A stretch of DNA of 64,000 nt from Candidatus Harrisonbacteria bacterium RIFCSPLOWO2_01_FULL_44_18 (lineage in GTDB: Bacteria > Patescibacteriota > Minisyncoccia > UBA6257 > WO2-44-18): assembly GCA_001817915.1 (NCBI GenBank), contig MHJJ01000014.1, forward strand, positions 3,695 to 67,694, in the 5' to 3' direction. Positions within the stretch are counted from its first letter, which is position 1, and every line of letters begins with the position of its first letter. The notes under the pieces were generated by a model that saw nothing but the letters and a program-made list of their open reading frames with translations, did no database searches and was not told the origin of the DNA. Positions 5,841 through 63,553 of this stretch are shown in pieces. The position numbers and the translations under genes were made by a program.

Positions 5841-5971
5841 GATTTTCCGTCAGAGGCGGATTCGCCTTCGGCGGAGGAATACAGAATTTAGGATTTAGGT
5901 ATAGGATTGGATAAATTCTACTTCCCTAAATTCTAAATTCTATATCCTATATTCTATTTTCAAAATCAACT

Positions 5972-7420: not shown

Positions 7421-7433
7421 ATTAGAATCCAAA

Positions 7434-11344: not shown

Positions 11345-11374
11345 TCTATTGCTTCCGGGAAGCAATAGATGGAA

Positions 11375-14695: not shown

Positions 14696-14703
14696 GATTT
14701 CTT

Positions 14704-14745
14704 GATTTCGGGAATCGATAGATACTTCTATCGATTCCCGAAATC
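14704..14745. repeat. palindrome of the gatttcgggaatc family
   Basis: Sequence gatttcgggaatcgatagatacttctatcgattcccgaaatc. More arms lie at 14773-14811 and 37541-37598. Confidence 0.85.
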
Positions 14746-14832
14746 GCCAAGTTAATTCAAATCCAAAAAGCCGATTCCCGAAATCACGCCGAACTATTGA
14801 TTTCGGGAATCATAAAAGCCTATAATTTCTAT

Positions 14833-21392: not shown

Positions 21393-21424
21393 GTAATAAA
21401 TTATACCATTTCTATATAAAAATT

Positions 21425-21667
21425 TGGACCTAGCCAGAATCCCCTGCCTGCCGGCAGGCAGGGAACTGGCGTTTCCTCATTGTCCCGACAGCAAAGGTGG
21501 ACCCAAGGAGATTCGAACTCCTGACCTCCACATTGCAAATGTGGCGCTCTAGCCAACTGAGCTATGGGCCCACCTTTACTGTCGTGGATCCTCGACTTCA
21601 TTTTATTATATTTTTTAAAAAAGTGCGTCGGGACAAATGAGGTGTTCTGCCACTGAACTATAGGCCC
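21425..21667 (-). pseudogene. interrupted Ala-type tRNA gene (host of the nested tRNA-Ala; also has a T-loop palindrome)
   Basis: Minus strand reads GGGCCTA-TA-GTTC-AGTGGCA-GAAC-A-CCTCA-TTTG, then a 151-nt insert, then CAA-TGAGG-AAAC-GCCAG-TTC, then a 21-22-nt palindrome, then GATT-CTGGC-TAGGTCC-A. G3:U70 is present. Confidence 0.6.
21498..21571 (-). tRNA. tRNA-Ala(UGC)
   Basis: GGGCCCA-TA-GCTC-AGTTGGCTA-GAGC-G-CCACA-TTTGCAA-TGTGG-AGGTC-AGGAG-TTCGAAT-CTCCT-TGGGTCC-A, with G3:U70. Confidence 0.9.
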
Positions 21668-21735
21668 GCCCACTTGATTTATATTATTCGATTGTTTGGA
21701 TTTTCGCCAGACTTTGTTTGCCAATAAAATCTAAC

Positions 21736-21766
21736 GGTTCAACGCGTTGAACCATTAGAGTTTTTT
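21736..21766. terminator. palindromic hairpin ggttcaacgcgttgaacc with a T-run (possible bidirectional terminator)
   Basis: Perfect 18-bp palindrome, followed by tttttt on the plus strand. Confidence 0.4.
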
Positions 21767-21890
21767 GATTCCTCAACATAATATTTATATTTCTAAACTA
21801 GTTATGCGCGGCATAAAGGAACCGGCGTCAAATACTTCGGGCTTCGGCGAGGCGAAGCTTGCTTACGCTAAAGCTTTGACGAAGCGAATG

Positions 21891-21977
21891 CGGAGACGGG
21901 AGGATTCGAACCTCCGATGCCCTTTCGGGCATACCGCATTTCGAGTGCGGCCCATTCAACCACTCTGGCACGTCTCC
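21891..21977 (-). tRNA. tRNA-Ser(CGA)
   Basis: GGAGACG...CCGCA-CTCGAAA-TGCGG, long variable arm TATGCCCGAAAGGGCATC, GGAGG-TTCGAAT-CCTCC-CGTCTCC-G. Confidence 0.9.
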
Positions 21978-21979
21978 AA

Positions 21980-22159
21980 TGCCCTCGGGAAGAATCGAAC
22001 CTCCATCCGCGCGTTAGGAGTGCGCTGTTCCCCGCCTGCCATCGCTTGTGCCCCCAGAAAGAATCGAACTCTCATCTTTCCCTTAGGACGGGATTGCTCG
22101 GTCCATTGAGCTATGGGGGCTCAGGCCATGGCGGGCAGTATCCATTGAACTACGAGGGC
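21980..22159 (-). pseudogene. interrupted tRNA-Arg(CCU)-like gene (host of the nested tRNA-Arg)
   Basis: GCCCTCG-TA-GTTC-AATGGATA, then a 108-nt insert (22031-22138), then GAAC-A-GCGCA-CTCCTAA-CGCGC-GGAT-GGAGG-TTCGATT-CTTCC-CGAGGGC-A. Confidence 0.6.
22049..22120 (-). tRNA. tRNA-Arg(CCU)
   Basis: GCCCCCA-TA-GCTC-AATGGACC-GAGC-A-ATCCC-GTCCTAA-GGGAA-AGAT-GAGAG-TTCGATT-CTTTC-TGGGGGC-A. Confidence 0.85.
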
Positions 22160-22167
22160 ACGCAATT

Positions 22168-22196
22168 ATTATATTCGATCTTCGGCAACTTGACAA
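22168..22196 (-). promoter_or_regulatory. sigma70-like promoter TTGTCA-17-TATAAT driving the minus-strand tRNA cluster
   Basis: Minus strand reads TTGTCAagttgccgaagatcgaaTATAAT and ends 8 nt before the first tRNA nucleotide (22159). Its -35 overlaps the plus-strand -35. Confidence 0.6.
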
Positions 22197-22217
22197 ATTA
22201 TGTAGACCTGCTATAAT
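22190..22217 (+). promoter_or_regulatory. sigma70-like promoter TTGACA-16-TATAAT for the 3D-domain gene
   Basis: cTTGACAaattatgtagacctgcTATAAT. Confidence 0.65.
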
Positions 22218-22258
22218 TTGGTTAAAGTGCGATAGTTCCCCGAAGGGGGATTTTTTTT

Positions 22259-24464: not shown

Positions 24465-24713
24465 CATCAATTTAGTGAGCCAATTCCCGCCCATCTTCTT
24501 TGTTACTCGTCGCTTATGTGCCTATTGGCACACTACGCTCCTCGCGCCTTGAATCTGGACAGGAATTGGCTCACCCGAAGGGAAGAGAGAATTTGAGCCA
24601 AGTTCGAGGAACGACGAGGAGGTTGTGCTGGTAAGCACATCGACGAGGAGTGACAAAGAAATTGGCTCAAATTCTCTCTTCTAAATTTGACGCCAGTTCG
24701 AATCCTGCTCTCC
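24444..24713. repeat. compound nested palindrome N4
   Basis: Outer arms ggagagcaggattcgagctagcatcaatttag / ctaaatttgacgccagttcgaatcctgctctcc. Inner arms tgagccaattcc/ggaattggctca and aagagagaatttgagccaa/ttggctcaaattctctctt. Shares about 60 nt with 48682-48751. Confidence 0.9.
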
Positions 24714-24737
24714 TAGAGAAATAACCGCGGTTTCAAA

Positions 24738-25559: not shown

Positions 25560-25595
25560 GGAAGCGTTGCAGAGTGGACGAATGCACCATTTGGC
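25560..25595 (+). pseudogene. orphan 5' half of a Ser-type tRNA
   Basis: GGAAGCG-TT-GCAGAGTGGACGAATGC-A-CCATT... has the acceptor 5' strand and a D-arm very like that of the neighbouring tRNA-Ser. I found no matching 3' half. Confidence 0.5.
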
Positions 25596-25607
25596 TCTAT
25601 TCAAAGC

Positions 25608-25694
25608 GGAGGGTTGGCAGAGTGGTCTAACGCGCCGCACTTGAAATGCGGTTTCCCGGAAACGGGATCACAGGTTCGAATCCTGTACCCTCCG
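25608..25694 (+). tRNA. tRNA-Ser(UGA)
   Basis: GGAGGGT-TG-GCAGAGTGGTCTAACGC-G-CCGCA-CTTGAAA-TGCGG, variable arm TTTCCCGGAAACGGGATC, ACAGG-TTCGAAT-CCTGT-ACCCTCC-G. Confidence 0.9.
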
Positions 25695-25765
25695 CTTTGA
25701 ATAGAAACTTGTCCTCCGAAGGAGGATCCGCCTCCGGTGGAAAATGCGGTATCGCAACCAAAAAG

Positions 25766-26754: not shown

Positions 26755-29373
26755 ATGATTACCAAAGAAACTTTGCGAAAATCTTTTTGGGCTTTGCCGG
26801 TTCACGAGGCGCTTGACGCGCTTGAAACTACTGCCAGCGGGTTGATGCGGGATGAAGCAGAAGAGCGTCTTAGGGTTTTCGGGAAAAACGTTTTAGCCAA
26901 AAGGATAAGAATAACTAAATTAAAAATTCTTGTCAGGCAGTTCGGAAGCCCGCTGATTTTTCTTTTGTTAATTGCCGGCGGCGTTACTTTGTTTTTGAAG
27001 GATTTTAAGGATGCCGGATTTATTCTTGCCGCCGCTTTAATAAACGCGATTTTGGGATTTTATCAAGAAAGCAAAGCCGAGACGGCGTTGGCGCATTTAA
27101 GAACTTACATCAGAGAACGCAATCGCGTATTTAGAGATAATCACGAGATAGAAGTTGATTCCAGCGAATTAGCGCCGGGAGACGTCATCCATTTATCTCA
27201 AGGGGATCGGATACCCGCGGACTGCCGATTAATTTATGTCAACGATTTTGCCGTTGATCAAGCGATTTTAACCGGCGAATCCCTGCCGGTTTCTAAAGAT
27301 ATCAAGCCCGCCAGTTTTCAGGCAGTCCTCGCGGATCAGAATTCAATGGTCTTTAGCGGCACGGTGGCGGTACAGGGGTTTGCCAATGCCGTTGTTTCCG
27401 CTACCGGCAAATACACCGAATTGGGGAAAATCGCCGCTCTAGTCGCGAGGCCGGAAAAGGAACGCACTCCTCTTCGCGAGGCAATAAATAAATTCAGTAT
27501 TAAGGCCAGCATTATTTTGATCGGATTAACGGCCCTGATTTTTTCGCTCGGCGTTTTGACGGGAAGTTCATTGCTGGATATGTTTTTGATTTCGGTGGCG
27601 ATCGTAGTTTCGGCGATACCGGAAGGATTGCCAATCGCGATGACCGTCATTTTGGCGGTAGGCGTGCAAAGATTGGCGTGGAAAAAAGGAATTGTCCGCA
27701 AATTGCTCGCGGCGGAAACAATGGGCAGCACCTCGGTAATTTTGACTGATAAGACCGGCACCTTGACTGAAGCCAAGATGGAACTTTCGGAAATAAAAGT
27801 TTATAAGGAGGACCGCGCGGAAGAGCGGAAAGAAACGATATTAAAACTCGCCATCCTTAATAGCGACGTGGTGATAGAAAATCCCGGCGATTCGCCTTTT
27901 GACTGGGAAATTATTGGCCGGCCGCTGGAGGTGGCGATTGTCAGATCGGCGGCCAAATTTGATATTTTGGCGCCGGATGTTCGTAAGAAAATGAAAGCCG
28001 TCGATTATCTTCCATTTAGTTCCGTAAATAAATTTTCGGCAAACGTTATTCAGCAAGGTTCGAAATATTTACTTAGCGTGTTCGGCGCGCCGGAAATTTT
28101 ATTAAAATTTTCTAATTTGCCCGATAATTCGCGCCGCCAAATTCATAGAGATGTCGACAAGGTCGCCTATGGCGGCGCGAGAGTTTTAGCAGTCGCGACA
28201 AAAGAATTATCGGGCATTGAAGGAGTTTCGCTTCGCCAGAAAGAAATTTTTAAAGATTTGGATTTTTTGGGAACAATGTCTTTTAGGGACCCGATTCGCA
28301 AAGAAGTCAGAGACGCGGTTAATCGGGTCGCTCAAGCCGGTGTCCGCACTTTAATTGTCACGGGAGATCATCGCGGCACCGCGGAGTTTGTAGCTAAAGA
28401 AGTCGGCATTTCTATTGATGGCGATAGTGTCATTGACGGCGCTGAACTTGACGCGCTGAACGATGAAGATCTTAAAAATAGACTTCCGAATTTAAGGATT
28501 GTTTCGCGGGTAAGTCCGGAAGGAAAATTGAGGATAGTTAAAGCGCTTCAGGGGATAGGGGAGATTGTGGCAATGACCGGCGACGGCGTGAATGACGCCC
28601 CAAGTTTAAAGGAAGCTGATATCGGCGTTAGCATGGGTTCGGGCACCGATGTTGCTAAAGATGTATCGGATTTAGTTTTGCTTGACGATAATTTTGAAAC
28701 CATCGTGGAAGCCGTGGCTGAGGGCCGAAGGATTATACAAAATATCAGAAAAGTAATCGTTTATCTGCTTTCAAATGCTTTGGACGGATTGATTTTAATT
28801 GGCGGGTCCTTGCTTATCGGCTTGAGCTTGCCGTTGAACGCGCTGCAGATTCTTTGGGTTAATTTTTTTACCGATAGTTTTCCGGCAATCGCCTTGGCTT
28901 TTGAAAAAAAGATTGACCATTGGGTTGATCGTCCCGCGCCAATCCATAAAGGATTGCTTGACTCGGAAATGAGATTTTTGATTCAAGTGATCGGAGCGCT
29001 CACGAGTGTTTTGCTTTTGGTTTTATACGTTGGCTTGCTTTATTTGGGTATTGAAGAAAAATTGGTTCACACTTTTATCTTTGCCGCCTTTGGGACATAC
29101 AGTTTGTTTTTGGTTTTCGCGGTTCGAAGTTTGAGACGGAGTATTTTCACTTATAATCCTTTTTCAAACCCCGCGCTTTTGGGAAGCGTGATTTTAGGAT
29201 TGGGATTAATGGCGATCGCGATTTACGTTCCTTTTCTCCAAAAATTATTCGGCACCATGCCCTTGCCGTTAAACTGGCTCTGGGGCATCGTGGGTTTGGG
29301 AATTTTGAATGTCTTCGCGATTGAGTTTGGAAAGTGGGTTTTTAGAAAAAAACAACTAACAACTAACAACTAA
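26755..29373 (+). CDS. cation-transporting P-type ATPase (type II, Ca2+/Mg2+-like)
   Basis: 872 aa. The DKTGTLT phosphorylation site, TGES, TGDGVNDAPSLK and about 10 TM segments are present. Confidence 0.9.
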   Translation: MITKETLRKSFWALPVHEALDALETTASGLMRDEAEERLRVFGKNVLAKRIRITKLKILVRQFGSPLIFLLLIAGGVTLFLKDFKDAGFILAAALINAILGFYQESKAETALAHLRTYIRERNRVFRDNHEIEVDSSELAPGDVIHLSQGDRIPADCRLIYVNDFAVDQAILTGESLPVSKDIKPASFQAVLADQNSMVFSGTVAVQGFANAVVSATGKYTELGKIAALVARPEKERTPLREAINKFSIKASIILIGLTALIFSLGVLTGSSLLDMFLISVAIVVSAIPEGLPIAMTVILAVGVQRLAWKKGIVRKLLAAETMGSTSVILTDKTGTLTEAKMELSEIKVYKEDRAEERKETILKLAILNSDVVIENPGDSPFDWEIIGRPLEVAIVRSAAKFDILAPDVRKKMKAVDYLPFSSVNKFSANVIQQGSKYLLSVFGAPEILLKFSNLPDNSRRQIHRDVDKVAYGGARVLAVATKELSGIEGVSLRQKEIFKDLDFLGTMSFRDPIRKEVRDAVNRVAQAGVRTLIVTGDHRGTAEFVAKEVGISIDGDSVIDGAELDALNDEDLKNRLPNLRIVSRVSPEGKLRIVKALQGIGEIVAMTGDGVNDAPSLKEADIGVSMGSGTDVAKDVSDLVLLDDNFETIVEAVAEGRRIIQNIRKVIVYLLSNALDGLILIGGSLLIGLSLPLNALQILWVNFFTDSFPAIALAFEKKIDHWVDRPAPIHKGLLDSEMRFLIQVIGALTSVLLLVLYVGLLYLGIEEKLVHTFIFAAFGTYSLFLVFAVRSLRRSIFTYNPFSNPALLGSVILGLGLMAIAIYVPFLQKLFGTMPLPLNWLWGIVGLGILNVFAIEFGKWVFRKKQLTTNN

Positions 29374-29457
29374 CAACTAACAACTAACAACTAACAACTA
29401 ACAACTAACAACTAACAACTAACAACTAACAACTAACAACTAACAACTAACAACTAA
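29353..29457. repeat. heptanucleotide tandem repeat (CAACTAA)x15
   Basis: 105 bp of perfect repeat. It overlaps the last 21 nt of the ATPase CDS and abuts the stop codon of comF. Confidence 0.95.
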
Positions 29458-30167
29458 ACCTTGGCTATTACCAGTCCGATGACTCTTGCCGCGCCGGCTT
29501 TTCGTAAAATTTTTACTGCTTCGTTCATAGTACTGCCGGAAGTAAATACGTCATCGATCGGGATTATCTTTTTGCCCTTAATCAACTCCGGATTTTTTAC
29601 CGCGAAGCATCCGGCAATGTTCTCTTGCCTTTTTTCTAATCCTTTTATTTCCGGCTGGGGCTTAGTATTTTTTATTCTGATTAAATTGCCGGTCATCAAT
29701 TTCACGCCAAGGGTTTTGCTGATTTCTTCGGCAATGGCTTCAGATTGATTAAACCCGCGCCCCCTTTCTCGAGAAGGATGAAGCGGGATCGGGATAATCA
29801 AACTTGCGGGACTTATTGGCCTTATAGGCCCTATGTAGGCCAGCAGGATTTTCGCCAGCGGTTTGGCGGCGCATTTTTGTTTTTTGTACTTGAGCCGCCA
29901 AATCAGTTTTTTTACTTTTTCATCGTCATAGGACGTTGCCGCGCCCAATAAGTAGGAGTCTTTTTTGTGGCAGACTTTTTTATTGTCGGCTAATCTTGCC
30001 CGACAGATCGAGCAATACAACGCGGTATTTATAGGAATAGAATTAAAACAAGAAGCGCAGATATATTCTTCCTTTTCGGTTTTTTGAAGAGCTTTTTCGC
30101 AAATCAAACAAATCGGCGGGGAGAGAATATCCAAAACAGCGCCTTTTAATCTTATTAAGTAATTCAT
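29454..30167 (-). CDS. comF: ComF family protein (phosphoribosyltransferase domain, ComFC-like)
   Basis: 237 aa. N-terminal Cys pairs (CLIC..CASC, CSIC) and the PRTase motif IIPIDDVFTSGSTMNEA. Confidence 0.8.
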   Translation of the reverse strand: MNYLIRLKGAVLDILSPPICLICEKALQKTEKEEYICASCFNSIPINTALYCSICRARLADNKKVCHKKDSYLLGAATSYDDEKVKKLIWRLKYKKQKCAAKPLAKILLAYIGPIRPISPASLIIPIPLHPSRERGRGFNQSEAIAEEISKTLGVKLMTGNLIRIKNTKPQPEIKGLEKRQENIAGCFAVKNPELIKGKKIIPIDDVFTSGSTMNEAVKILRKAGAARVIGLVIAKV

Positions 30168-48664: not shown

Positions 48665-48681
48665 CGTCAATCCCGCGCCTA

Positions 48682-48751
48682 GGAGAGCAGGATTCGAACT
48701 AGCGTCAAATTTAGAAGAGAGAATTTGAGCCAAGTTCGAATCCTGCTCTCC
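48682..48751. repeat. 19-bp-stem hairpin related to N4 (probable metK terminator)
   Basis: Stem ggagagcaggattcgaact / agttcgaatcctgctctcc. The loop shares sequence with 24444-24713. Confidence 0.85.
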
Positions 48752-48810
48752 TATTATCCGCCTAAATGGCGGATTTTTGTTTTTGAATAAACAAGTTATA
48801 ATTAAACTTA

Positions 48811-49196: not shown

Positions 49197-50672
49197 ATGC
49201 ACTTACACGATTTAACAATCAAAAAGTTCCACGAAGGTTTACTAAAAAAAGATTTTTCCGCGCTGGAAATAACGAAGGAATTTTTTGATTACATTGAAGT
49301 TAAGGATAAAGAAATTGGGGCTTATCTTTCCTTGGCCAAAGACGAAGCATTTTTGCGGGCCGAAAAAGCAGATTTAAAAATTGCCAAAGACGAACCGATG
49401 GACGCGCTGAGCGGGGTGCCGCTCGCGATCAAAGACAATATTTTGATTGATGGCCAGCCGGCTACTGCCGCATCTAAAATTTTGGAAAATTATAAGGCGG
49501 TTTATGACGCAACGGTAATTAAGAAATTAAAAGCCGTTGGAGCGGTTTTCCTTGGCAAAACTAATATGGACGAGTTTGCCATGGGTTCTTCGACAGAAAA
49601 TTCCGGATTTAAATTAACTAAGAATCCTTATGATTTGGAACGAGTTCCGGGAGGGTCTTCCGGCGGTTCGGCAGCCGCGGTTGCCGCCCATATGGCAGTG
49701 GCCGCCTTTGGTTCTGATACCGGCGGTTCAATTCGACAGCCAGCCAGTTTCTGCGGTGTTGTCGGATTAAAGCCGACTTATGGAGCGGTTTCTCGACATG
49801 GATTGATCGCGATGGCTTCAAGCTTGGATCAGATCGGCCCTTTTACGAAAACCGTTGAAGACGCGGCGATTTTATTTAAAACTATTGCCGGAAAAGATCA
49901 GTTTGATTCTACCAGCGTTGAAACAAATTATAATGATGAATTATTAAATCCAAAGCTTGAAGATGTTAAAAAACTGACCGTCGGTCTGCCGGAAGAATAT
50001 TTTATAAGCGGCGTTGAGCCAGGCGTCATTAAAGCAGTTGAATCGGCAATCAATCAATTCAAAAGTTTGGGGATTAATTTTAAAAAAATCAGTTTGCCGC
50101 ACACCAAATACGCCTTATCTTGCTACTATATCATTATGCCCGCGGAAGTTAGCGCCAATTTAGCTCGTTTTGATGGTATAAGATATTCCAAAATCCAAAA
50201 TCCAAAATCCAAAATCCAAAACTTGCTGGAATTGTATAAAAGACAGCGCAGCGAAGGATTCGGGCCGGAAGTGAAGCGAAGAATTATTCTGGGAACTTTT
50301 GTTTTATCATCCGGATATTACGATGCTTACTATGCCAAAGCGCAGAAGGCGCGCGCGCTGATCAAAAAAGATTTTGATGAAGCATTCAAAGAAGTAGATG
50401 TTATTCTTACTCCGGTCGCGCCAACGCCGGCATTCAAATTCGGAGAAAAAACCAGCGACCCATTGGCGATGTACCTTTCTGACATATTTACCATTCCAGT
50501 CAATCTTGCTGGCTTACCCGCTATTTCGATACCAGTGAAACAAGCGACAAGCGACATGTCGCGCGTCACAAGTCATAAGCCACTGCCTATCGGTTTTCAA
50601 TTGATTGGCAAACATTGGCGAGAGGCCGATATTTTGGGGATGGGGATGTTTTATGAAAGATTACAAATTTAA
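49197..50672 (+). CDS. gatA: Asp/Glu-tRNA(Asn/Gln) amidotransferase subunit A
   Basis: 491 aa with the amidase signature GGSSGGSAAAVAA..GSDTGGSIRQPA. Inserts at 50187-50221 and 50544-50570. Confidence 0.93.
   Translation: MHLHDLTIKKFHEGLLKKDFSALEITKEFFDYIEVKDKEIGAYLSLAKDEAFLRAEKADLKIAKDEPMDALSGVPLAIKDNILIDGQPATAASKILENYKAVYDATVIKKLKAVGAVFLGKTNMDEFAMGSSTENSGFKLTKNPYDLERVPGGSSGGSAAAVAAHMAVAAFGSDTGGSIRQPASFCGVVGLKPTYGAVSRHGLIAMASSLDQIGPFTKTVEDAAILFKTIAGKDQFDSTSVETNYNDELLNPKLEDVKKLTVGLPEEYFISGVEPGVIKAVESAINQFKSLGINFKKISLPHTKYALSCYYIIMPAEVSANLARFDGIRYSKIQNPKSKIQNLLELYKRQRSEGFGPEVKRRIILGTFVLSSGYYDAYYAKAQKARALIKKDFDEAFKEVDVILTPVAPTPAFKFGEKTSDPLAMYLSDIFTIPVNLAGLPAISIPVKQATSDMSRVTSHKPLPIGFQLIGKHWREADILGMGMFYERLQI
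50187..50221. repeat. heptanucleotide tandem repeat TCCAAAA x5 inside gatA
   Basis: Read directly; encodes SKIQNPKSKIQN. The same heptamer occurs x4 in pheT. Confidence 0.95.
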
Positions 50673-51557: not shown

Positions 51558-51623
51558 GCGATGAACAGGGCCCAGCCGTAATTTCAAAACACCCTAACGG
51601 GTGCTTTTTGTTTCAGCAGTCTG

Positions 51624-51698
51624 CGCGGGCGGCCGGATTTGAACCGGTGACCTTCCGCGTGACAGGCGGACGCTCTAACCAGACTGAGCTACGCCCGC
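51624..51698 (-). tRNA. tRNA-Asp(GUC)
   Basis: GCGGGCG-TA-GCTC-AGTCTGGTTA-GAGC-G-TCCGC-CTGTCAC-GCGGA-AGGTC-ACCGG-TTCAAAT-CCGGC-CGCCCGC-G. Flanked by an 11-bp inverted repeat. Confidence 0.88.
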
Positions 51699-51728
51699 GC
51701 AGATTGCTGGAATACCTTTGTTAATATA

Positions 51729-53616: not shown

Positions 53617-53646
53617 TTGTCAATCGCAAGGATAGTTTGATATAAT
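53617..53646 (+). promoter_or_regulatory. sigma70-like promoter TTGTCA-18-TATAAT for the tRNA-fMet/Met cluster
   Basis: TTGTCAatcgcaaggatagtttgaTATAAT ends 5 nt before the tRNA 5' end. Confidence 0.6.
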
Positions 53647-53651
53647 ATTCT

Positions 53652-53723
53652 CGCGGGGTAGAGAAGTAGTATCTCGCAAGGCCCATAACCTTGAGATCGT
53701 TGGTGCAATTCCAACCCCCGCAA
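53652..53723 (+). tRNA. initiator tRNA-fMet(CAU)
   Basis: CGCGGGG...CCCCGCA-A with the C1:A72 mismatch and loop CCCATAA. The D-loop (AGTAGTA) and T-loop (TGCAATT) are atypical. Confidence 0.8.
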
Positions 53724-53742
53724 CAAAATTTTTACTTTAATT

Positions 53743-53809
53743 GCCGGCGTAGCTCAGCGGCACCCCGCACTAAAACAAGTTTAGTACGGGGCAAGGAGCG
53801 AGCCAAGAT
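53743..53809 (+). pseudogene. orphan tRNA 5' half with a hairpin inserted in the D-loop
   Basis: GCCGGCG-TA-GCTC-AGCGGCA, then hairpin ccccgcactaaa/tttagtacgggg, then CAAG-GAGC-G-AGCCA... No 3' half was found downstream. Confidence 0.45.
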
Positions 53810-53884
53810 GGCTGGGTAGCTCAGTGGTAGAGCAGGCGTTTCATAAGCGCCAGGTCGCGAGTTCGATCCTCGCCCCAGCCACCA
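53810..53884 (+). tRNA. tRNA-Met(CAU) elongator type (or Ile2, if the anticodon is modified), CCA encoded
   Basis: GGCTGGG-TA-GCTC-AGTGGTA-GAGC-A-GGCGT-TTCATAA-GCGCC-AGGTC-GCGAG-TTCGATC-CTCGC-CCCAGCC-ACCA. Confidence 0.88.
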
Positions 53885-53966: not shown

Positions 53967-54317
53967 GTGGCGGAGCAATTGGTGTGGGTAGGATTTACGG
54001 CCATCCTTTTTCTTGTCGGACTTTGTGTATTGGGCGCCATTTTGTCAATTGAGAAAAAGTCAAAGCGATACGCATCTTTGGCCGCCCTTTATTTTTTTGT
54101 TTGCGGTATGGTATGCGTTTTCGCGGGATTAGTAACTGCGATGCCCTGGTTTAAATTTTTTATGATGTTGGCGGCCGGGTGTAATCTTATTTGGGGGATA
54201 GAATATGTGCGGCAATATCATAAGGAAAGTAAAAAGGCTTCGCTACCATGTCCCGAGGAAAACCGCGAAAAGCAAAAGACGAATCAGGGCGCGGAGCATT
54301 TTGATAGATACGCGTAA
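53967..54317 (+). CDS. hypothetical membrane protein
   Basis: 116 aa with a GTG start behind GGAGGG and 3 TM segments. Confidence 0.5.
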   Translation: MAEQLVWVGFTAILFLVGLCVLGAILSIEKKSKRYASLAALYFFVCGMVCVFAGLVTAMPWFKFFMMLAAGCNLIWGIEYVRQYHKESKKASLPCPEENREKQKTNQGAEHFDRYA

Positions 54318-54831: not shown

Positions 54832-55977
54832 ATGGATATTCAAGATTTACGACATTCTTTTCATCACGAGATCAAAGGCGTTAAAGACGCAAAAACCCTT
54901 GAGGGGTTTAGAATAAAGTATTTAGGGCGCAAAGACGGCGAGCTTACTAAAATTTTGCGTTCACTGAAAGATTTGCCGTTGGCAAAAAAGAGAAAAATTG
55001 GTCCTGCCGCCAATAATTTGCGAAAGGAAATCGAAGTCGCTTTAGAAGCAAAACTTAAGGAGCTACAAACTACAAACTACAAACTACAAACTAGAATTGA
55101 TGTTACTATGCCCGGCAAAAAGATTCCGGTCGGGCATCTTCACCCGCTGACTTTGATGGAAAATAGAATTCGGGAAATTTTCCGCGGTTTGAATTTTTCC
55201 GTTGTTGAAGGCCCGGAGATAGAAACCGAACATTATAATTTTGACGCTTTAAATATTCCGGCTAATCATCCAGCTAGGGATATGTGGGACACCTTTTGGT
55301 TAAAACTTTCTGCCAACGGCGGAAAGTTCGCCCAACCAGATTTGCGAAGCAAATCTGGTTTAGGGCTAAAAACGCAGACTAACGCAGAAAAAATTCCGCG
55401 TGAGTCCGCGTCAAGTCCGCGTGTGTCTGCGCTGTTAAGAACTCACACCAGTCCGATGCAGATTCGTTATATGGAAACGCATCGGCCGCCGTTTCAGATA
55501 ATTGTGCCCGGACGAGTATTTCGTTATGAGGCTACTGACGCTTCCCACGAAATCAATTTTCATCAAGTTGAGGGTTTGATGGTCGGAGAAAATATCAATC
55601 TGGCTAATTTTAAATATATTATTGAGGAATTTTTCCGCCAGCTTTTCGGCGCCGGCACGCATATCCGTTTTCGCCCAAGTTATTTTCCGTTTGTCGAACC
55701 CGGTTTGGAAATAGACATTCTCCTTGACAGGAGCGCAGAAGAACGCGGACTATACGCAGACCAACGTGGAAAAAGTCTGCGTGAATCCGCGTGGTTGGAG
55801 GTGATGGGCGCGGGAATGGTGCATCCCAATGTTTTTCGAGCCGTTGGTTATGATTCCAGAAAGGTCCAGGGTTTTGCTTTCGGTTTGGGCATAGAAAGGC
55901 TGGCGATGATTAAATATAAGATCCCCGATATACGATTGTTCTACTCGGGAGACCTGCGTTTCATTAACCAGTTTTGA
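54832..55977 (+). CDS. pheS: phenylalanine--tRNA ligase alpha subunit
   Basis: 381 aa. Class II motifs include HPARDMWDTF, LLRTHTSPMQIR and FPFVEPGLEID..GAGMVHPNV. Three repeat-derived inserts. Confidence 0.93.
   Translation: MDIQDLRHSFHHEIKGVKDAKTLEGFRIKYLGRKDGELTKILRSLKDLPLAKKRKIGPAANNLRKEIEVALEAKLKELQTTNYKLQTRIDVTMPGKKIPVGHLHPLTLMENRIREIFRGLNFSVVEGPEIETEHYNFDALNIPANHPARDMWDTFWLKLSANGGKFAQPDLRSKSGLGLKTQTNAEKIPRESASSPRVSALLRTHTSPMQIRYMETHRPPFQIIVPGRVFRYEATDASHEINFHQVEGLMVGENINLANFKYIIEEFFRQLFGAGTHIRFRPSYFPFVEPGLEIDILLDRSAEERGLYADQRGKSLRESAWLEVMGAGMVHPNVFRAVGYDSRKVQGFAFGLGIERLAMIKYKIPDIRLFYSGDLRFINQF
55063..55090. repeat. heptanucleotide tandem repeat CTACAAA x4 inside pheS
   Basis: ctacaaactacaaactacaaactacaaa encodes LQTTNYKLQT. 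Confidence 0.9.
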
Positions 55978-56084: not shown

Positions 56085-58055
56085 ATGAAATTTTCCTACA
56101 CATTATTAAAAAAACTGGCGCCCGTTATAAAAAGCTCCGAGCAACTGATGGAAGCCTTAGCTTTTCATGCTTTTGAAGTTGAAAAAGTTGATGGCGATGT
56201 TATAGACATCGTCATTCCTGCTAATCGTTATTCTGATGCCGCCTCGCATTATGGGATGGCCGTGGTAGTGTCGGCAATTTTAGGCAAAAAAACGCCAGAA
56301 TTAAAACTGCCGGCGCTAAAGTCTAAAGCGCAAAGTTTAAACTTCAAAGTTGGCATTGATTCCAAAAAGCTTTGTCCGCGTTACAGCGGACTTTATGCCG
56401 AGATTAACAAGATTGGTAAATCTCCCGAGTGGATGCAAAAAATTTTAATTTCCTGCGGTTTGCGTCCAATTAACAACATCGTTGACGTGATGAATTATGT
56501 GATGCTGGAAATAGGACAACCATTACACGCTTTCGATTTTGACGAAATAGAAAGCGTGAAATCCAAAATCCAAAATCCAAAATCCAAAAATATTGTCGTT
56601 AGATTAGCAAAAGAAGGCGAAAAAATTGAAACAATTGATGGTGGCAAATATGACCTCGATGTAAATGATTTAGTAATAGCGGATGAAAAAGGGGCATTAG
56701 CGATTGCCGGGGTAAAAGGCGGAAAGCGCGCCGAGGTTTCTTTAAAAACTAAACGTATTATTGTTGAGGCGGCGAATTTCGATTCGGTTAGCGTTTACAA
56801 AACTTCTCGGCGGCTCAATTTATTCACTGATGCTTCGGCGCGCTTTTCTCATGGACTAGCACCCGTGTTAGTTGAAAAGGGGATTAAGAGAGCGGCTCAG
56901 CTTTTGAAAGAAGTTTGCGGCGCCAGATTGGGCGATTGGCTCGATGTGAACTATGTGAAGCCGAGTAAAACGATTATCAAGTTTGACGTGGAAAGATTTA
57001 ATAAGTTGACCGGACTTAGTTTAAGCGAAAAAGCGTGTTTGGAATATCTTAAAAAATTAGGATTTCAAGCAAGGGGCAAATTTATTGAGCCGCCGGCTGA
57101 ACGGACCGACATTTTGATTTTCGAGGATTTAGCCGAGGAAATTGTTAATCTTTATGGGTATGACCGGTTGCTTTCGGTTGTCCCGCGCGCGCTCTTGAGC
57201 CCTTCTGGAGCGGAAGATCAAATAGTTCTTAAAGATAAAATCAGAAGCATTCTAACCGGCTTTGGCTTGAGTGAAGTTTATAATTATTCTTTCATCGGAG
57301 AGCCTGATCCGAATCTACAAAATAAATTTTCATTGGTGGAGCTGGTAAATCCAATTGCCGATGATAAGAAATACCTGCGGCCCAGTTTATTTCCTCACTT
57401 GACTAGAAATATCGAAGAGAATTTTCGGTTTTACGATGAAGTAAGGATTTTTGAAATCGGTCGCGTTTTTGCGAAGGCAAGCGGCAAGAACGGTATAGCA
57501 AGCGGCATTAATGAGCAATTGAGTTTGGGGATCGCATTGGGGCTTAAAAAAGGCGCGCCATTTTTGGAGTTGAAAGGAATTGTTGAACAAATGCTCGGAC
57601 AAGCGGGCTTAGTTGATTATTTTACAAAAGAAGACGGCGAAGGTCGTTTACGGCTTGAATCCGATCATCGCACGCTCGGGTATTTAATTGCCAAAGACAA
57701 TAAAGCCCTTGCGGAAATTAATCTTGATGAATTGCTTCAATTGGTGGTCGGCGAAAAAGAATATAGGCCATTGCCGAAATATCCATCGGCGACGCGCGAT
57801 CTTTCATTTATGGTTGACGCTGAAGCGAGAGTAGCCGCGATTCAAAATATTATTGAAAATACCAGCCATTTACTCGATGACGCCGACTTATTGGATTGGT
57901 ACGAAGACCCGAAACTTGGCCCGAATAGAAAAAGTCTTACTTTTCGATTAGTTTTCCAAGCCGAAGATCGAACTTTAACCGATGAGGAAGTCGATCAAGA
58001 GTTAGGCAAAATTGTAGCCAGTTTGAAGGAGAAGTTTGATGTAGAATTAAGATAA
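56085..58055 (+). CDS. pheT: phenylalanine--tRNA ligase beta subunit (short form)
   Basis: 656 aa with B3/4, B5, core and C-terminal FDX-ACB-like regions. Directly follows pheS. Confidence 0.9.
   Translation: MKFSYTLLKKLAPVIKSSEQLMEALAFHAFEVEKVDGDVIDIVIPANRYSDAASHYGMAVVVSAILGKKTPELKLPALKSKAQSLNFKVGIDSKKLCPRYSGLYAEINKIGKSPEWMQKILISCGLRPINNIVDVMNYVMLEIGQPLHAFDFDEIESVKSKIQNPKSKNIVVRLAKEGEKIETIDGGKYDLDVNDLVIADEKGALAIAGVKGGKRAEVSLKTKRIIVEAANFDSVSVYKTSRRLNLFTDASARFSHGLAPVLVEKGIKRAAQLLKEVCGARLGDWLDVNYVKPSKTIIKFDVERFNKLTGLSLSEKACLEYLKKLGFQARGKFIEPPAERTDILIFEDLAEEIVNLYGYDRLLSVVPRALLSPSGAEDQIVLKDKIRSILTGFGLSEVYNYSFIGEPDPNLQNKFSLVELVNPIADDKKYLRPSLFPHLTRNIEENFRFYDEVRIFEIGRVFAKASGKNGIASGINEQLSLGIALGLKKGAPFLELKGIVEQMLGQAGLVDYFTKEDGEGRLRLESDHRTLGYLIAKDNKALAEINLDELLQLVVGEKEYRPLPKYPSATRDLSFMVDAEARVAAIQNIIENTSHLLDDADLLDWYEDPKLGPNRKSLTFRLVFQAEDRTLTDEEVDQELGKIVASLKEKFDVELR
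56562..56589. repeat. heptanucleotide tandem repeat TCCAAAA x4 inside pheT
   Basis: tccaaaatccaaaatccaaaatccaaaa encodes SKIQNPKSK. Confidence 0.95.
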
Positions 58056-60319: not shown

Positions 60320-63300
60320 ATGGCTAAAACAAAAGCAAAAAAAGCGAGTAAAAATGAGGAGAAACAGCCTTCTTATACTGCCAAAGACATTTATGTTTTG
60401 GAAGGATTGGAGCCGGTTCGAAAGCGGCCGGGGATGTATATTGGCACAACTGATGTTGCTGGCCTACACCACCTAATTTATGAAGTCGTTGATAATTCAA
60501 TTGACGAGGCGATGGCCGGATACGCGAAAAATATTCAAGTTGAGTTTTTGCCGGGCAATCGGATAGCGGTAACCGATGATGGCCGCGGCATTCCGGTAGA
60601 GATTCATAAACAAACCAAAAAATCCGCGCTTGAAACCGTGATGACAACTTTGCATGCCGGAGGGAAATTTGGCGGCGAATCTTATAAAGTCTCCGGCGGC
60701 TTGCATGGCGTCGGCGTTTCGGTAGTTTGCGCCCTCTCAAAGTGGATGAAAGCGGAGGTTTGCCGCGATAAAGGACTTTATGTTCAAGAATATGAGCGCG
60801 GTAAACCGCAATATAAAGTTAAAAAAATAGCAAAGTGCGATAGTACCGGCACTAAAGTAACTTTTGAGCCGGATCCGGAAATTTTTAAAACGATTGAATT
60901 CGACCGCAAGCGCGTCTTGGATCATTTGCGCCAGCAAGCTTTTCTTACTAAAGGCGCAAGAATCGAAGTCATCGATATTCGCGAAAAAACGCCTTTTTAC
61001 CACGCCTTCTATTTTGACGGCGGACTTTTATCATTTATCAAATTTCTTAACCGCAGCGAAAAACCGCTGCAAGAGACGCCTTTTTACATTAATAAAACCT
61101 CGGAGGGCGTGGAGGTTGAGGCGGTTTTTACTTATAATAACGAATTGGAAATTCAGGAATTGAGCTTTGCCAATAATATTTATACTCCTGATGGCGGGAT
61201 GCATTTGACCGGTTTTCGTTCGGCCTTAACCCGCACTTTAAATGATTATGCTCGCGGCAACGATTATGTTAAAAAAGATGAAGATAATTTGACTGGTGAT
61301 GATGTGAGGGAGGGTCTTGTTGCCATTGTTTCGGTGAAAATTCGCGAGCCGCAATTTGAAGGCCAGACTAAGGCAAGGTTAGGAAATTCTGAAGCCAGGA
61401 CGGCGGTTGAGGGCGTTATCGGTGAAGCGCTTAAGGAATTTTTGGAAAGAAATTCTGTCGATGCCAGGCGTATCATGGAAAAATGCCTGTTGGCCGCTAA
61501 GGCCAGGAAAGCGGCTAAAGCGGCGAAAGAAACCGTGCTACGCAAGGGGATTTTAGAAGGATTAACTCTGCCCGGAAAATTAGCCGATTGTAGTTCAAGA
61601 AACCCCGAAGAATCGGAGTTGTTTATCGTGGAAGGAGATAGCGCCGGTGGGTGTTTTTTCGGTGAAACAAAAGTAGCTTTATTAGATGGAAGGAATATCT
61701 CGTTTAAAGATTTAGTTGAGGAAGAAAAAAAAGGAAAGAAAAATTTTTGTTATACCATAAAAAAAGATGGCCATATTGGCGTTGCTCCTATTTTAAATCC
61801 AAGAATAACCAGGCAGAATGCTAAAGTGGCTAAGGTTATTTTGGATAATGGTCAAGAAATTATATGTACGCCAGGTCATAAGTTTATGCTTAGAGATGGC
61901 ACTTTTAGAGAGGCCAAAGATTTAAATTGCAGAGATTCTTTAATGCCTTTATATCGAAAAAAATCGGAGATTGGAGGGCGAATAACAATTGATGGGTATG
62001 AAATGGTCTACAATCCTAAAGAAAATTTTTGGAGGTTTACTCATGTTTTATCAGATGGGCTTAATTTAGAAAATAAAACGTATTTTGAAACTAATGGACC
62101 ACAAAGGCACCATAAAGATTTTAATAAATTAAATAATAATCCGAATAATATTACCCGACTATCCAAAGAAGATCATTTTAGAATCCATCAAGAAATTGCC
62201 CTGACCGTATTGAGAAGCCCAGAGGTTTTAGAAAAATTAAGGAAAATAAGGCAATCCCCCGAATATAGAAATAGGATAAGCAAAAAAATGCGCGAGCCCA
62301 GAATGAGAGCCATACTTAGCGAAAGAGCCAAAAAACAATGGGAAAACGAGAATTATAAAAAATTTATGGCTCAGAAGTTTTTAGGATTTTATAAAAATAA
62401 TGAGGAATACAGAAATAAAAATAAAAAATTACTGTACAAAAGCCAGATGGAGTATTGGAACAACGAAGACAACAGAAAGAAACAAGCCGAAAGGGTTAGA
62501 AATTATTTCCATAAAAATTTAGTCATAAGGTCTTGGCTTTCTCAAATCGCGAAACAGCAGTGGGATGATTCAGCTCTAATAAAATGGAGGGCGAACAAAA
62601 CCAAAGAACAATGGACTCAAGCATTTAGAATTAAAAGGAGCATGGCTTATAGCAAGACATATAAAGAGAAGGCCCTGAAATTGCTAAAAGAACTTTTTGA
62701 TGGAAATGGGAAAATTGAAAAAGGAGAATATACACGGGAAAGACTTATTAGAAAAGACAAATCTATCCTTAGATATGAAACCATTTGTGAAAGATTTTTT
62801 GATAGTGATGAAAATAAATTGAAAGAAGCCGTAATAAATTACAATCATAAAATTAAAGCAGTGATTCCATTAGAAGAAAAGATGGACGTATACGATATAG
62901 AGGTTCCCAATACTCACAATTTTGCTCTTGCTTCTGGAGTTTTTGTTCATAATAGTAGTAAGCAAGGACGTGACCGGCGAACTCAAGCAATTCTTCCGCT
63001 TAAGGGCAAGATTTTGAATGTGGAAAAATCAAGGATTGATAAAATGCTTTTGAACAAAGAGATTAAAGCGTTAGTGGTTGCCATAGGAACGGCGATAGCC
63101 GAGTCGTTCGATATCAATAAATTGCGCTACCATAAAGTGATTTTAATGACTGACGCCGATGTTGACGGATCGCATATCCGGACTTTGCTTTTGACTCTTT
63201 TTTATCGCTACTTTCCCCAAATTATTGACGAAGGCCATCTTTACATCGCCCAACCCCCGCTTTATCGCGTTCAAAAAGGCAAAGAAATAAGCTATATTTA

Positions 63301-63553
63301 CAGAGAAGAAGAAAGAGAAAAATTACCGAAAGAGGGGATTAATTTACAGCGCTATAAAGGTCTTGGCGAAATGAATCCGGAACAGCTTTGGGAAACGACC
63401 ATGGATCCGGCCAAAAGAGCATTGAGGATAGTGAAGGTGGATGATGTCGAAGAGGCTGATAGAATGTTTGATGTTTTGATGGGTGAAGACGTTGAGCCGA
63501 GGAAAAATTTTATACAAGCCCACGCTCTTTCAGTTAAAAACTTCGATATATAA
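60320..63553 (+). CDS. gyrB: DNA gyrase subunit B, interrupted by an intein
   Basis: 1077 aa. The exteins total 643 aa and carry the GLHHLIYEVVDNSIDEA, EGDSAGG / S-KQGRDR, PLKGKILNVEK and LMTDADVDGSHI motifs. Confidence 0.95.
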   Translation: MAKTKAKKASKNEEKQPSYTAKDIYVLEGLEPVRKRPGMYIGTTDVAGLHHLIYEVVDNSIDEAMAGYAKNIQVEFLPGNRIAVTDDGRGIPVEIHKQTKKSALETVMTTLHAGGKFGGESYKVSGGLHGVGVSVVCALSKWMKAEVCRDKGLYVQEYERGKPQYKVKKIAKCDSTGTKVTFEPDPEIFKTIEFDRKRVLDHLRQQAFLTKGARIEVIDIREKTPFYHAFYFDGGLLSFIKFLNRSEKPLQETPFYINKTSEGVEVEAVFTYNNELEIQELSFANNIYTPDGGMHLTGFRSALTRTLNDYARGNDYVKKDEDNLTGDDVREGLVAIVSVKIREPQFEGQTKARLGNSEARTAVEGVIGEALKEFLERNSVDARRIMEKCLLAAKARKAAKAAKETVLRKGILEGLTLPGKLADCSSRNPEESELFIVEGDSAGGCFFGETKVALLDGRNISFKDLVEEEKKGKKNFCYTIKKDGHIGVAPILNPRITRQNAKVAKVILDNGQEIICTPGHKFMLRDGTFREAKDLNCRDSLMPLYRKKSEIGGRITIDGYEMVYNPKENFWRFTHVLSDGLNLENKTYFETNGPQRHHKDFNKLNNNPNNITRLSKEDHFRIHQEIALTVLRSPEVLEKLRKIRQSPEYRNRISKKMREPRMRAILSERAKKQWENENYKKFMAQKFLGFYKNNEEYRNKNKKLLYKSQMEYWNNEDNRKKQAERVRNYFHKNLVIRSWLSQIAKQQWDDSALIKWRANKTKEQWTQAFRIKRSMAYSKTYKEKALKLLKELFDGNGKIEKGEYTRERLIRKDKSILRYETICERFFDSDENKLKEAVINYNHKIKAVIPLEEKMDVYDIEVPNTHNFALASGVFVHNSSKQGRDRRTQAILPLKGKILNVEKSRIDKMLLNKEIKALVVAIGTAIAESFDINKLRYHKVILMTDADVDGSHIRTLLLTLFYRYFPQIIDEGHLYIAQPPLYRVQKGKEISYIYREEEREKLPKEGINLQRYKGLGEMNPEQLWETTMDPAKRALRIVKVDDVEEADRMFDVLMGEDVEPRKNFIQAHALSVKNFDI
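61652..62953 (+). mobile_element. GyrB intein (434 aa) with an HNH-type endonuclease motif
   Basis: Starts at Cys (CFFGETKVALLDG), has block B TPGHKF, and ends VFVHN followed by Ser. Inserted within EGDSAGG|SxKQGRDR. The internal segment HHKDFNKLNNNPNNITRLSKEDHFRIH looks HNH-like. Confidence 0.88.

Follow-up and report, generated by a model that had tools for sequence, protein, structure and literature searches.

How does the 5' half of a tRNA gene, its D-loop split by a hairpin, come to lie directly in front of a complete tRNA gene? The question is raised by positions 53743 to 53884 of a 64,000-nucleotide stretch (hereafter the window) of contig MHJJ01000014.1 from Candidatus Harrisonbacteria bacterium RIFCSPLOWO2_01_FULL_44_18, where a first-pass annotation, made from the letters alone, described such a fragment ahead of an intact tRNA with a CAU anticodon. 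This genome was covered through the 64-kb window, and its relatives were compared as metagenome or database contigs. The fragment is likely the 5' remainder of an old tRNA gene that was replaced from within by another tRNA gene (a nested replacement), and it would now be transcribed as a spacer that yields no tRNA.

The Fragment Is the 5' Part of an Old tRNA(CAU) Gene

The locus is made up of the following features, from the promoter-like site to the end of the intact tRNA.

53617-53646, + strand: promoter-like site TTGTCA, 18 nt, TATAAT, in agreement with the consensus at 11 of 12 positions, ahead of the initiator tRNA
53652-53723, + strand: initiator tRNA(CAU) with a C1/A72 mismatch (ARAGORN; Rfam tRNA, 55.1 bits)
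53724-53742, + strand: AT-rich spacer of 19 nt, from the initiator tRNA to the fragment
53743-53762, + strand: nt 1-21 of the outer (old) tRNA(CAU), GCCGGCG TA GCTC AGCGGCA, namely the acceptor 5' strand, TA, the D-stem 5' strand and the D-loop
53763-53795, + strand: 33-nt insert, a 12-bp GC-clamped hairpin (53763-53791) followed by CAAG (53792-53795)
53796-53802, + strand: nt 22-28 of the outer tRNA, with the D-stem 3' strand GAGC, G26 and AG; homology to the old gene stops here
53803-53809, + strand: 7-nt linker CCAAGAT from the relic to the intact tRNA, not conserved (4 of 10 aligned columns the same as in the relative L114)
53810-53884, + strand: intact inner tRNA(CAU), acceptor GGCTGGG/CCCAGCC, encoded CCA (ARAGORN, Met; Rfam tRNA, 69.5 bits)

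The sequence elements and coordinates that had been read from the letters hold, including the 19-nt spacer and the complete tRNA at 53810-53884. The D-loop is indeed split by a hairpin, whose arms CCCCGCACTAAA and TTTAGTACGGGG enclose the loop ACAAG and form 11 Watson-Crick pairs of a possible 12, with one C.A mismatch; the insertion point falls exactly between D-loop nt 21 and D-stem nt 22. The string AGCCA, taken at first for the start of an anticodon stem, is homologous to the old gene in its AG (nt 27-28) and not in its CCA. ARAGORN and Rfam called the two complete tRNAs only, and the fragment as a canonical tRNA gene received no ARAGORN call and no Rfam match even at E<=10.

The identity of the fragment was established from relatives reached through MurD. 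Four of them (L012, L015, L017 and L021) have an intact tRNA(CAU) only 6-24 nt past the initiator tRNA; the corresponding gap in the window measures 85-86 nt. L151 has the same pair of an initiator and a GCCGGCG-type tRNA(CAU), with a spacer of 100 nt. The second gene of the relatives starts as G(C/T)CGGC(G/T)TAGCTCAGTGG(C/T)AGAGCGA(G/A)G. The fragment corresponds to nt 1-28 of this gene, with 19 of 20 positions identical before the insert and, after it, 7 of 7 against L012 and 6 of 7 against L015, and it occupies the site of the complete tRNA(CAU) gene beginning GCCGGCGTAGCTCAGTGGCAGAGCGA. The 33-nt insert is missing from the gene of every un-nested relative. L019 has a tRNA of the inner type 16 nt past the initiator tRNA, without a relic.

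A profile hidden Markov model (HMM) built from the tRNA(CAU) genes of six relatives was run with nhmmer over both strands of the whole window from which 53763-53795 had been deleted. It matched 53744-53802 over model nt 2-27 (E=4.5e-4, 16.3 bits), with a higher score than it gave to the genuine initiator and Asp tRNAs. Because of this E value, and because the match is better than those of two genuine tRNAs, the resemblance is taken as homology, and the profile match together with the alignment to the relatives' gene excludes a chance resemblance. Scored without its hairpin, then, the fragment bears out the proposed tRNA homology and does not make a complete tRNA. In these respects it reads as a relic, with supported homology to tRNA and the same genomic position as the intact gene of relatives.

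The remainder of the old gene was looked for across the window. No T-arm or acceptor 3' strand belonging to the fragment was found, in keeping with the first-pass annotation: the expected 3' part (pattern TTCGATCCCTGCCGYCGGCA, at most 3 mismatches) is absent from the 64 kb, and excision of 53810-53884 with flanks of 0-89 nt on either side, followed by rescanning, never restored an outer tRNA. At the Met locus of the window, therefore, what is left is the 5' part only, and no nested arrangement is seen there.

The fragment and both complete tRNAs probably lie on one transcript starting from the 53617-53646 site. Since this promoter-like site is upstream and a scan of 53652-53884 reported no terminator before 53884, the interval most likely serves as the spacer of a two-tRNA precursor. 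The hairpin does not read as an intrinsic terminator, for the next bases are CAAGGAGCGAG and contain no T-run. In the predicted fold of the spacer the D-stem is extended by the hairpin (-25.2 kcal/mol), and this fold alone is unconvincing because its z is only -2.3 and 6 of 200 shuffled sequences were as stable. No second copy of the 53763-53791 hairpin was found in the window, and a window scan for hairpins clamped by CCCG/CCCT...GGG gave ten, all unrelated to it.

In Relative L114 the Old Gene Encloses a Second One

Both halves of the old gene persist in L114, a contig syntenic with the window (GatA, tRNA-Asp, the tRNA(CAU) locus, PheS, PheT) in which the nested unit is inverted. From its 5' side the unit reads GCCGGCGTAGCTCAGTGGCA, a 34-nt hairpin insert CCCCGTATAAAAGCAAAGCTTTATACGGGGCAAG, GAGCGA, a 10-nt linker and an intact tRNA(CAU) with acceptor GGCTGGG; on the 3' side follow a 10-nt linker, GTC GCAGG, a 38-nt hairpin and TTCGATC CCTGC CGTCGGC A. 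The inner tRNA stands where the outer anticodon arm would be, and the 3' remains of the outer gene comprise the variable loop, a T arm with a hairpin insert at nt 53/54 and the acceptor 3' strand. In its predicted 238-nt fold the outer acceptor stem is closed, the D- and T-arms carry their hairpins and the inner tRNA forms a cloverleaf (z=-4.3). The D-loop insert of L114 has the same position as that of the window and is homologous to it, with one base pair of the stem gained or lost and matched on both arms; the D-loop and T-arm hairpins of L114 have CCCCGTA in common. The description of the window fragment as an orphan is accordingly correct for this genome and not for L114, where the matching 3' part is still in place.

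The closest relative found, L148 (GatA 75% and PheS 66% identical), has the initiator tRNA, a structured spacer of 91 nt, the inner tRNA, about 140 nt and then GATCCCTGCCGCCGGTACCA, with which the outer gene ends; the 91-nt spacer contains nothing recognisable as the 5' relic. The old gene is thus represented by both halves in L114, by the 3' end only in L148 and by the 5' part only in the window. A similar module was observed on an unrelated contig, L107, where GCGCGCG TA GCTC AGTGGCA directly past a tRNA-Leu is followed by a GC-clamped hairpin of 38 nt, GAGCGA and then non-tRNA sequence. Its boundaries are those of the window (21/22 and the end of GAGCGA), but its acceptor and hairpin sequences differ. 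Nesting also extends to another anticodon: in L126 and L129 a decayed Thr(UGU)-like outer gene surrounds an intact tRNA-Thr(UGU) whose flanks, CCCCCACACCTT and AAGGTGTGGGGG, form a CCCCC.../...GGGGG helix.

A metagenome scan for GTAGCTCAGTGGCA, 12-42 nt and GAGCGA, a pattern that by design excludes the window sequence (AGCGGCA), returned 44 stretches, mostly ordinary tRNAs with a chance GAGCGA. None of the 44 was an intact tRNA with a D-loop insert, and the hairpin-bearing matches, L114 and L107, both lack tRNA homology past GAGCGA. Excision and rescanning for nested or hairpin-interrupted tRNAs at about 150 loci gave artefacts only, except for an Arg locus of the window described below, and Rfam searches of the larger inserts (window 21380-22220; L148) detected no ribozyme and no known RNA. 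Among further contigs, those of the PheS relatives L146, L147 and L149 lack both synteny and tRNAs, that of the PheS relative L150 has a single tRNA(CAU) at its edge, which gives no context, and those of the MurD relatives P0003, P0007 and P0010 are without the tRNA pair. In viral contig scans the junction of D-loop and hairpin was not matched, and ACGGGGCAAGGAGCGA gave eight chance matches. One candidate relic, L119, was rejected as an array of 53-nt tandem repeats.

Groundwater metagenomes, some of them named ANAN16, are the source of the contigs that are identical to the window. Contigs of the same strain are 99.9-100% identical over the tRNA loci, and no empty-site or intermediate allele was found among the contigs sharing window proteins.

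A separate case involves tRNA-Asp. On the minus strand of L151 (860-1027) an intact tRNA-Asp precedes a remnant of a different one, its 3' two-thirds, in which the acceptor strand CGCCCGC is of the type found in the window and in L011-L013. Judged from these sequences, it appears to be another same-anticodon replacement with a leftover remnant.

Nested tRNA Genes Elsewhere in the Window

The locus had been counted as the fourth in the window at which an intact tRNA accompanies tRNA remnants, and three more are indeed present.

21980-22159, - strand: outer tRNA-Arg(CCU), D-loop split at 21/22 by a 108-nt insert (ARAGORN call after excision)
21425-21667, - strand: outer tRNA-Ala(UGC) with two inserts (ARAGORN call only with both removed)
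25560-25760, + strand: Ser locus, with a 5' relic (25560-25590), intact tRNA-Ser(UGA) (25608-25695) and a remnant (about 25742-25757)

The Arg locus is the simplest. Its insert consists of an intact inner tRNA-Arg(CCU) (22048-22120) with 18 nt on each side, the flanks pair through CCCGCC/GGCGGG, and every stem of the outer tRNA is intact. The Ala locus has a 151-nt insert at anticodon nt 35/36, which carries an intact tRNA-Ala(UGC) (21496-21571) with flanks that lengthen its acceptor stem to about 20 bp, and a second insert in the T-loop, a perfect palindrome of 21 nt (21442-21462). Removal of the first insert alone is insufficient; after full excision the outer tRNA-Ala is complete and has a G3.U70 pair. 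At the Ser locus the intact tRNA-Ser(UGA) lies within an 18-bp helix formed by its flanks and its own acceptor stem, and the 3' remnant is a short piece of anticodon and variable arm. The Ser outer gene, read by eye and with BLAST, is too decayed for a tRNA call. What these loci have in common is that an older gene encloses, or closely adjoins, a complete tRNA gene with the same anticodon.

GC-clamped hairpins recur in other disrupted tRNA loops, namely in the Ala T-loop of the window, the T-arm of L114 and the D-loop of L107. The hairpins of different tRNA loops have in common only the clamp CCC(C)G...CGGG(G).

Several other sequence features were noted around these genes. The motif TCCCGACGCAC, an AT-rich stretch with a TATAAT-like hexamer and GAAGTCG...GAGGATCC occur together at window 21574-21633 (minus strand) and at about 3597-3700 of L148; in the window the combination is part of the insert, upstream of the inner tRNA-Ala, and in L148 it follows the inner tRNA(CAU) and precedes the 3' relic of the outer gene. 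It may be a portable promoter-like module. Double-hairpin or palindromic repeats form two small families, one at 5839-5878, 10575-10614 and 25705-25744, the other at 7396-7422, 11344-11370, 14697-14723 and 14792-14818, and one copy of such a repeat is located just 3' of tRNA-Ser(UGA), before the Ser remnant. At the tRNA-Asp gene of the window (51612-51709, minus strand) an 11-bp leader-trailer helix extends the acceptor stem through the discriminator base. The tRNA-Asp of L014 (6332-6428) has the same helix in another sequence, with two pairs changed on both sides (C-G to T-A), which suggests a pre-tRNA processing helix conserved in this sub-lineage; other relatives are without it.

Identity of the Intact tRNA(CAU)

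The intact inner tRNA is probably the elongator tRNA-Met, and its acceptor type GGCTGGG is also present in L019, L114 and L148. On its sequence it might also be a tRNA-Ile2, with a lysidine-modified CAU: its anticodon arm, GAGCAGGCGTTTCATAAGCGCC, recalls that of tRNA-Ile2 genes. A BLAST comparison with annotated E. coli genomes did not inform the choice between the two, nor did the single-position rules of PMC1635315 settle it.

Two body types of tRNA(CAU) can be distinguished, and none of the contigs examined carries both of them together with the initiator tRNA. Mosaics of the two were observed: L091 combines a GCCGGCG acceptor and a GCAGG T-arm with the anticodon arm of the other type, L014 has a GCCGGCG acceptor on the other type's body, and the inner gene of L114 has a GGCTGGG acceptor and a type-1-like anticodon arm. 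Because the two types do not co-occur and are linked by mosaics, they are treated as alleles of one gene.

A Probable Nested Replacement and the Conservation of the Relic

Starting from the observed homology, position and exact insert site of the fragment, and from the nesting observed in L114 and at the Arg and Ala loci of the window, the following course of events may be proposed. The old gene would have been a tRNA(CAU) of elongator-Met type, directly behind the initiator tRNA as it is in relatives. Insertion at the DNA level would have placed another complete tRNA(CAU), whose acceptor stem is different, inside this gene at the foot of its anticodon arm (past nt 27/28), and a GC-clamped palindromic insert would also have entered the old D-loop at nt 21/22. 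The inner gene would then take over the function, leaving the outer gene unable to make a tRNA. In the lineage of the window the outer 3' part would have been lost, so that the acceptor 5' strand, the D-arm with its hairpin and nt 26-28 remain; this relic would be transcribed as the spacer of 85-86 nt, folded as a hairpin-extended D-stem and removed when the two tRNAs are processed. The nesting of genes with the same anticodon would follow because a cell with one copy of a tRNA gene would tolerate an insertion there only when a replacement tRNA comes with it. Palindromic inserts, seen in disrupted outer genes only, would be tolerated there and nowhere else.

Several observations weigh against this account. 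The relic is 95-100% identical between the window and L114 (19 of 20 positions over nt 1-21, 6 of 6 over nt 22-27), whereas the flanks have diverged (leader 39%, linker 40%), the inner tRNA is 75% identical and the proteins of L114 are distant from those of the window (GatA 59%, PheS 50%). The insert itself agrees in 26 of 34 aligned columns, including the base-pair indel matched on both arms. The outer 3' end of L148 is likewise near-consensus (20 of 21). On these comparisons a neutral relic should not be so conserved, and the divergence expected of an unconstrained sequence was not found. A single ancient event followed by vertical inheritance does not fit either, because L012, which is closer to the window than L114 (GatA 70%), has an un-nested gene. 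No insertion enzyme was found among the scanned window ORFs (open reading frames) of at least 110 aa. Furthermore, the hairpin and the inner gene may have arrived in separate events, because the inner gene of the Met locus lies outside a loop and its flanks are unpaired, unlike those at the Arg and Ala loci. The conservation suggests selection on the relic or horizontal spread of the cassette, and it is possibly to be read as that of a selected leader element, as recent and repeated entry of nested units, or as allele exchange through conserved tRNA arms.

Horizontal spread leads to a broader proposal, which we advance tentatively and consider possible but somewhat doubtful: that these Patescibacteria harbor a hitherto undescribed kind of mobile or horizontally exchanged unit, consisting of a complete tRNA gene often set in pairing GC-clamped flanks, which inserts into resident tRNA genes. 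Such a unit would insert in loops or junctions (21/22, 27/28, 35/36) and would survive only where it has the same anticodon and replaces the gene that it destroys. In the outer genes so disabled, the D- and T-loops would receive related GC-clamped palindromes. The spread of the unit from one distant lineage to another might involve recombination at the ultra-conserved tRNA arms once DNA has been taken up (the window encodes a type IV pilus system), and conflict over tRNA-targeting nucleases might also drive it. The fragment would then be one arm of the unit, and its conservation would come from recent invasion or from use as a recombination arm, not from its age.

Selection on the relic is the basis of another explanation, rather improbable in our judgment, by which the 5' part of the old gene now serves as a structured element of the leader or spacer and is maintained by selection for that role, be it as a processing signal, an insulating fold or a binding site. 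The contrast with L114 speaks for it, as tRNA parts at 95-100% and an insert at 76% with a pair indel in both arms lie between flanks at 39-40% and next to an inner tRNA at 75%; the non-tRNA CAAG past the hairpin is also identical in L114, and L107 keeps the same module boundaries with a different acceptor and hairpin. The two compensatory pairs in the tRNA-Asp helix, between the window and L014, suggest in addition that structural selection acts on pre-tRNA flanks. A comparable case is known from plant mitochondria, whose t-elements are degenerate tRNA-like structures used as RNase P/Z processing signals; like the piece in the window, they are non-decoding structures derived from tRNA and kept in the transcript beside a functional gene. 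The t-elements, however, retain the acceptor and T-arm module by which the RNases recognise them, and the piece in the window has only the acceptor 5' strand and the D-arm. Against the leader explanation, the same inner tRNA is preceded by no recognisable 5' piece in L148, the closest relative, and by no relic in the 16 nt that separate the inner-type tRNA of L019 from its initiator. The piece is found in two genomes only, its covariation amounts to one pair, its fold is unexceptional (z=-2.3), and the predicted outer pairing GGC/GCC is absent in L114. Its contexts also differ: a spacer in the window, the 5' end of the transcript in L114.

Tandem Duplication, Integration Scars and Split tRNA Genes

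Nested replacement has further competitors that account for the fragment without an enclosed gene. Tandem duplication of tRNA genes is well known in bacteria; here a complete tRNA with the same anticodon follows right behind the fragment, and the two share GTAGCTCAG-GG-AGAGC. The arrangement could in principle have arisen by such a duplication, an internal deletion and the insertion of an unrelated hairpin, without nesting. This is very unlikely. The relic and the intact gene are not recent duplicates because their acceptor stems differ (GCCGGCG against GGCTGGG). The old 3' part lies downstream of the intact gene in L114 and L148, which is the order of nesting and not of a tandem, and the Arg and Ala loci of the window are unambiguously nested.

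Archaeal tRNA genes are the model for another proposal, in which the fragment belongs to a functional tRNA that is split or contains an intron; its hairpin would be cut out or tolerated, and a 3' half encoded elsewhere would be ligated to it or pair with it in trans, as in Nanoarchaeum. Split tRNAs are found in Nanoarchaeum, and Thermoproteales have non-canonical introns in D- and T-loops; these genes are functional and are matured by a splicing endonuclease at bulge-helix-bulge motifs. The breaks seen here resemble those of the archaeal split, multi-intron and permuted genes in lying in D-, anticodon- and T-loops, flanked by GC-rich complementary sequences. The insert sites (21/22, 35/36, 53/54 and 56/57) are in loops and recall the archaeal non-canonical intron sites, and the stems of the outer Arg and Ala genes are intact, as are the outer acceptor, D and T stems of L114. 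The proposal is nevertheless scarcely credible: an anticodon arm is entirely lacking from the outer gene of L114, and the whole 3' part from that of the window, no 3' half is present in the window, the interrupting sequence is a complete tRNA gene in its own right, the metagenome scan gave no intact tRNA bearing such an insert, and the host is a bacterium (MurD, NlpC/P60, a C1/A72 initiator tRNA). By inspection, no bulge-helix-bulge motif was seen at the insert borders, since the 12-bp stem is continuous; the predicted structure has an asymmetric internal loop, AGCGGCA/CAAG, and not the geometry of a 3-nt bulge, a 4-bp helix and a 3-nt bulge.

Integrative elements use sub-sites within tRNA genes, as work by Williams in 2002 reportedly described, and the fragment could be an attachment-site duplicate left by an integrase-driven element that was later lost. 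Fragments of tRNA genes beside intact genes are indeed known as the usual footprint of integration (PMC9897764), and the downstream gene (53967-54317, 116 aa) is an orphan whose homologues are confined to its own species. We give this origin next to no weight, given that the acceptor 5' strands GCCGGCG and GGCTGGG differ at 4 of 7 positions, so that the adjoining tRNA is not repeated, that the scanned ORFs included no integrase, transposase or phage gene, and that the whole L114 unit measures only about 240 nt. A Pfam scan of 40 window ORFs detected no integrase, transposase or free-standing homing endonuclease. The likeness to integration scars is that a partial, non-functional tRNA sits beside a complete gene and is missed or mislabelled by standard tRNA finders. 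Such scars are direct repeats of the adjoining gene, usually of its 3' part, which bracket an integrase-bearing element. Here, in contrast, the piece is a 5' part with a different acceptor, the "element" is a complete tRNA of the same anticodon, and the loops of the old gene bear palindromic inserts.

Two other classes of insertion resemble parts of these loci. Group I introns are known at position 35/36 in tRNAs of Patescibacteria (PMC13011429), that is, in the same phylum and at the site used in the nested Ala gene of the window and the Thr gene of L126. Unlike these introns, the inserts described here are 21-151 nt long, consist of a hairpin or a whole tRNA gene without a ribozyme, and give no Rfam group I match; for the 33-nt insert no RF00028 match was obtained at E<=10. 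The search was validated by a positive control, as it found the initiator tRNA of L114 (6014-6268), which carries a group I intron of about 245 nt just past the anticodon (RF00028, 62.7 bits, E=1.9e-15) and on which ARAGORN made no call. Rickettsia palindromic elements, repetitive extragenic palindromic (REP) sequences and repeats of the miniature inverted-repeat transposable element (MITE) kind are small palindromic elements that insert within genes, and the hairpins resemble them as short GC-clamped palindromes in the loops of structured RNA genes. The hairpin differs from these families in being single-copy in the window, and no transposase was identified among the scanned ORFs. The window also contains many other short repeats inside genes.

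For bacteria, neither nested tRNA genes of the same anticodon nor hairpin inserts in tRNA loops were found described in the literature, although the coverage was incomplete and this is absence of evidence only.

Genomic Context

The neighboring genes encode GatA, MurD, an NlpC/P60 protein, PheS and PheT, and their closest database relatives are Patescibacteria (Parcubacteria-like). Other repeats and insertions were observed in the window. Inverted repeats of 53 bp at 24663-24716 and 48680-48753, 24 kb apart, end in AGTTCGAATCCTGCTCTCCTA, which resembles a tRNA 3' end, and an extra direct copy of this 21-mer is present at 48733-48753. The repeats could allow inversion of the enclosed segment. 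The segment itself (24.7-48.7 kb) was considered as a mobile element and rejected, for it holds core genes (a type IV pilus system, LigA, MetK and a P-type ATPase).

Heptanucleotide microsatellites lie within the essential genes pheS (55061-55091), gatA (50177-50221) and pheT (56545-56589), and also at 29337-29471. AAATCCA repeats encode KSKIQNPKSK in GatA and PheT alike. In L001, a contig of the same species, the length of the pheS repeat deviates from that in the window by exactly one 7-nt unit, which splits PheS of L001 into two reading frames. In GyrB (60320-63553), residues 454-878 are an inserted stretch of about 425 aa that contains a match to an intein splicing domain, a further selfish insertion into one of this genome's core genes.

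Implications for tRNA Gene Turnover

The fragment itself is a piece of a pseudogene; the notable part is the pattern of nested replacement together with the conservation. Fragments of tRNA genes are normally taken as the scars of integrated elements, and here their origin appears to be different. In a bacterium with a tiny genome, several single-copy tRNA genes have probably been replaced from inside by another complete gene of the same anticodon, and the loops of the old genes have gathered palindromic inserts. Annotation pipelines would overlook the outer genes and might mis-assign the relics. If the locus reflects plain decay after a one-off event, it is a curiosity. If the pattern is general, it would represent a route of tRNA gene turnover or horizontal replacement that is hidden from standard tRNA finders, and it would account for the odd tRNA-like leaders in these genomes. 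Its causes would then be testable, and may include a structure-specific insertion activity, recombination through conserved tRNA arms, and selection by toxins that cleave tRNA.

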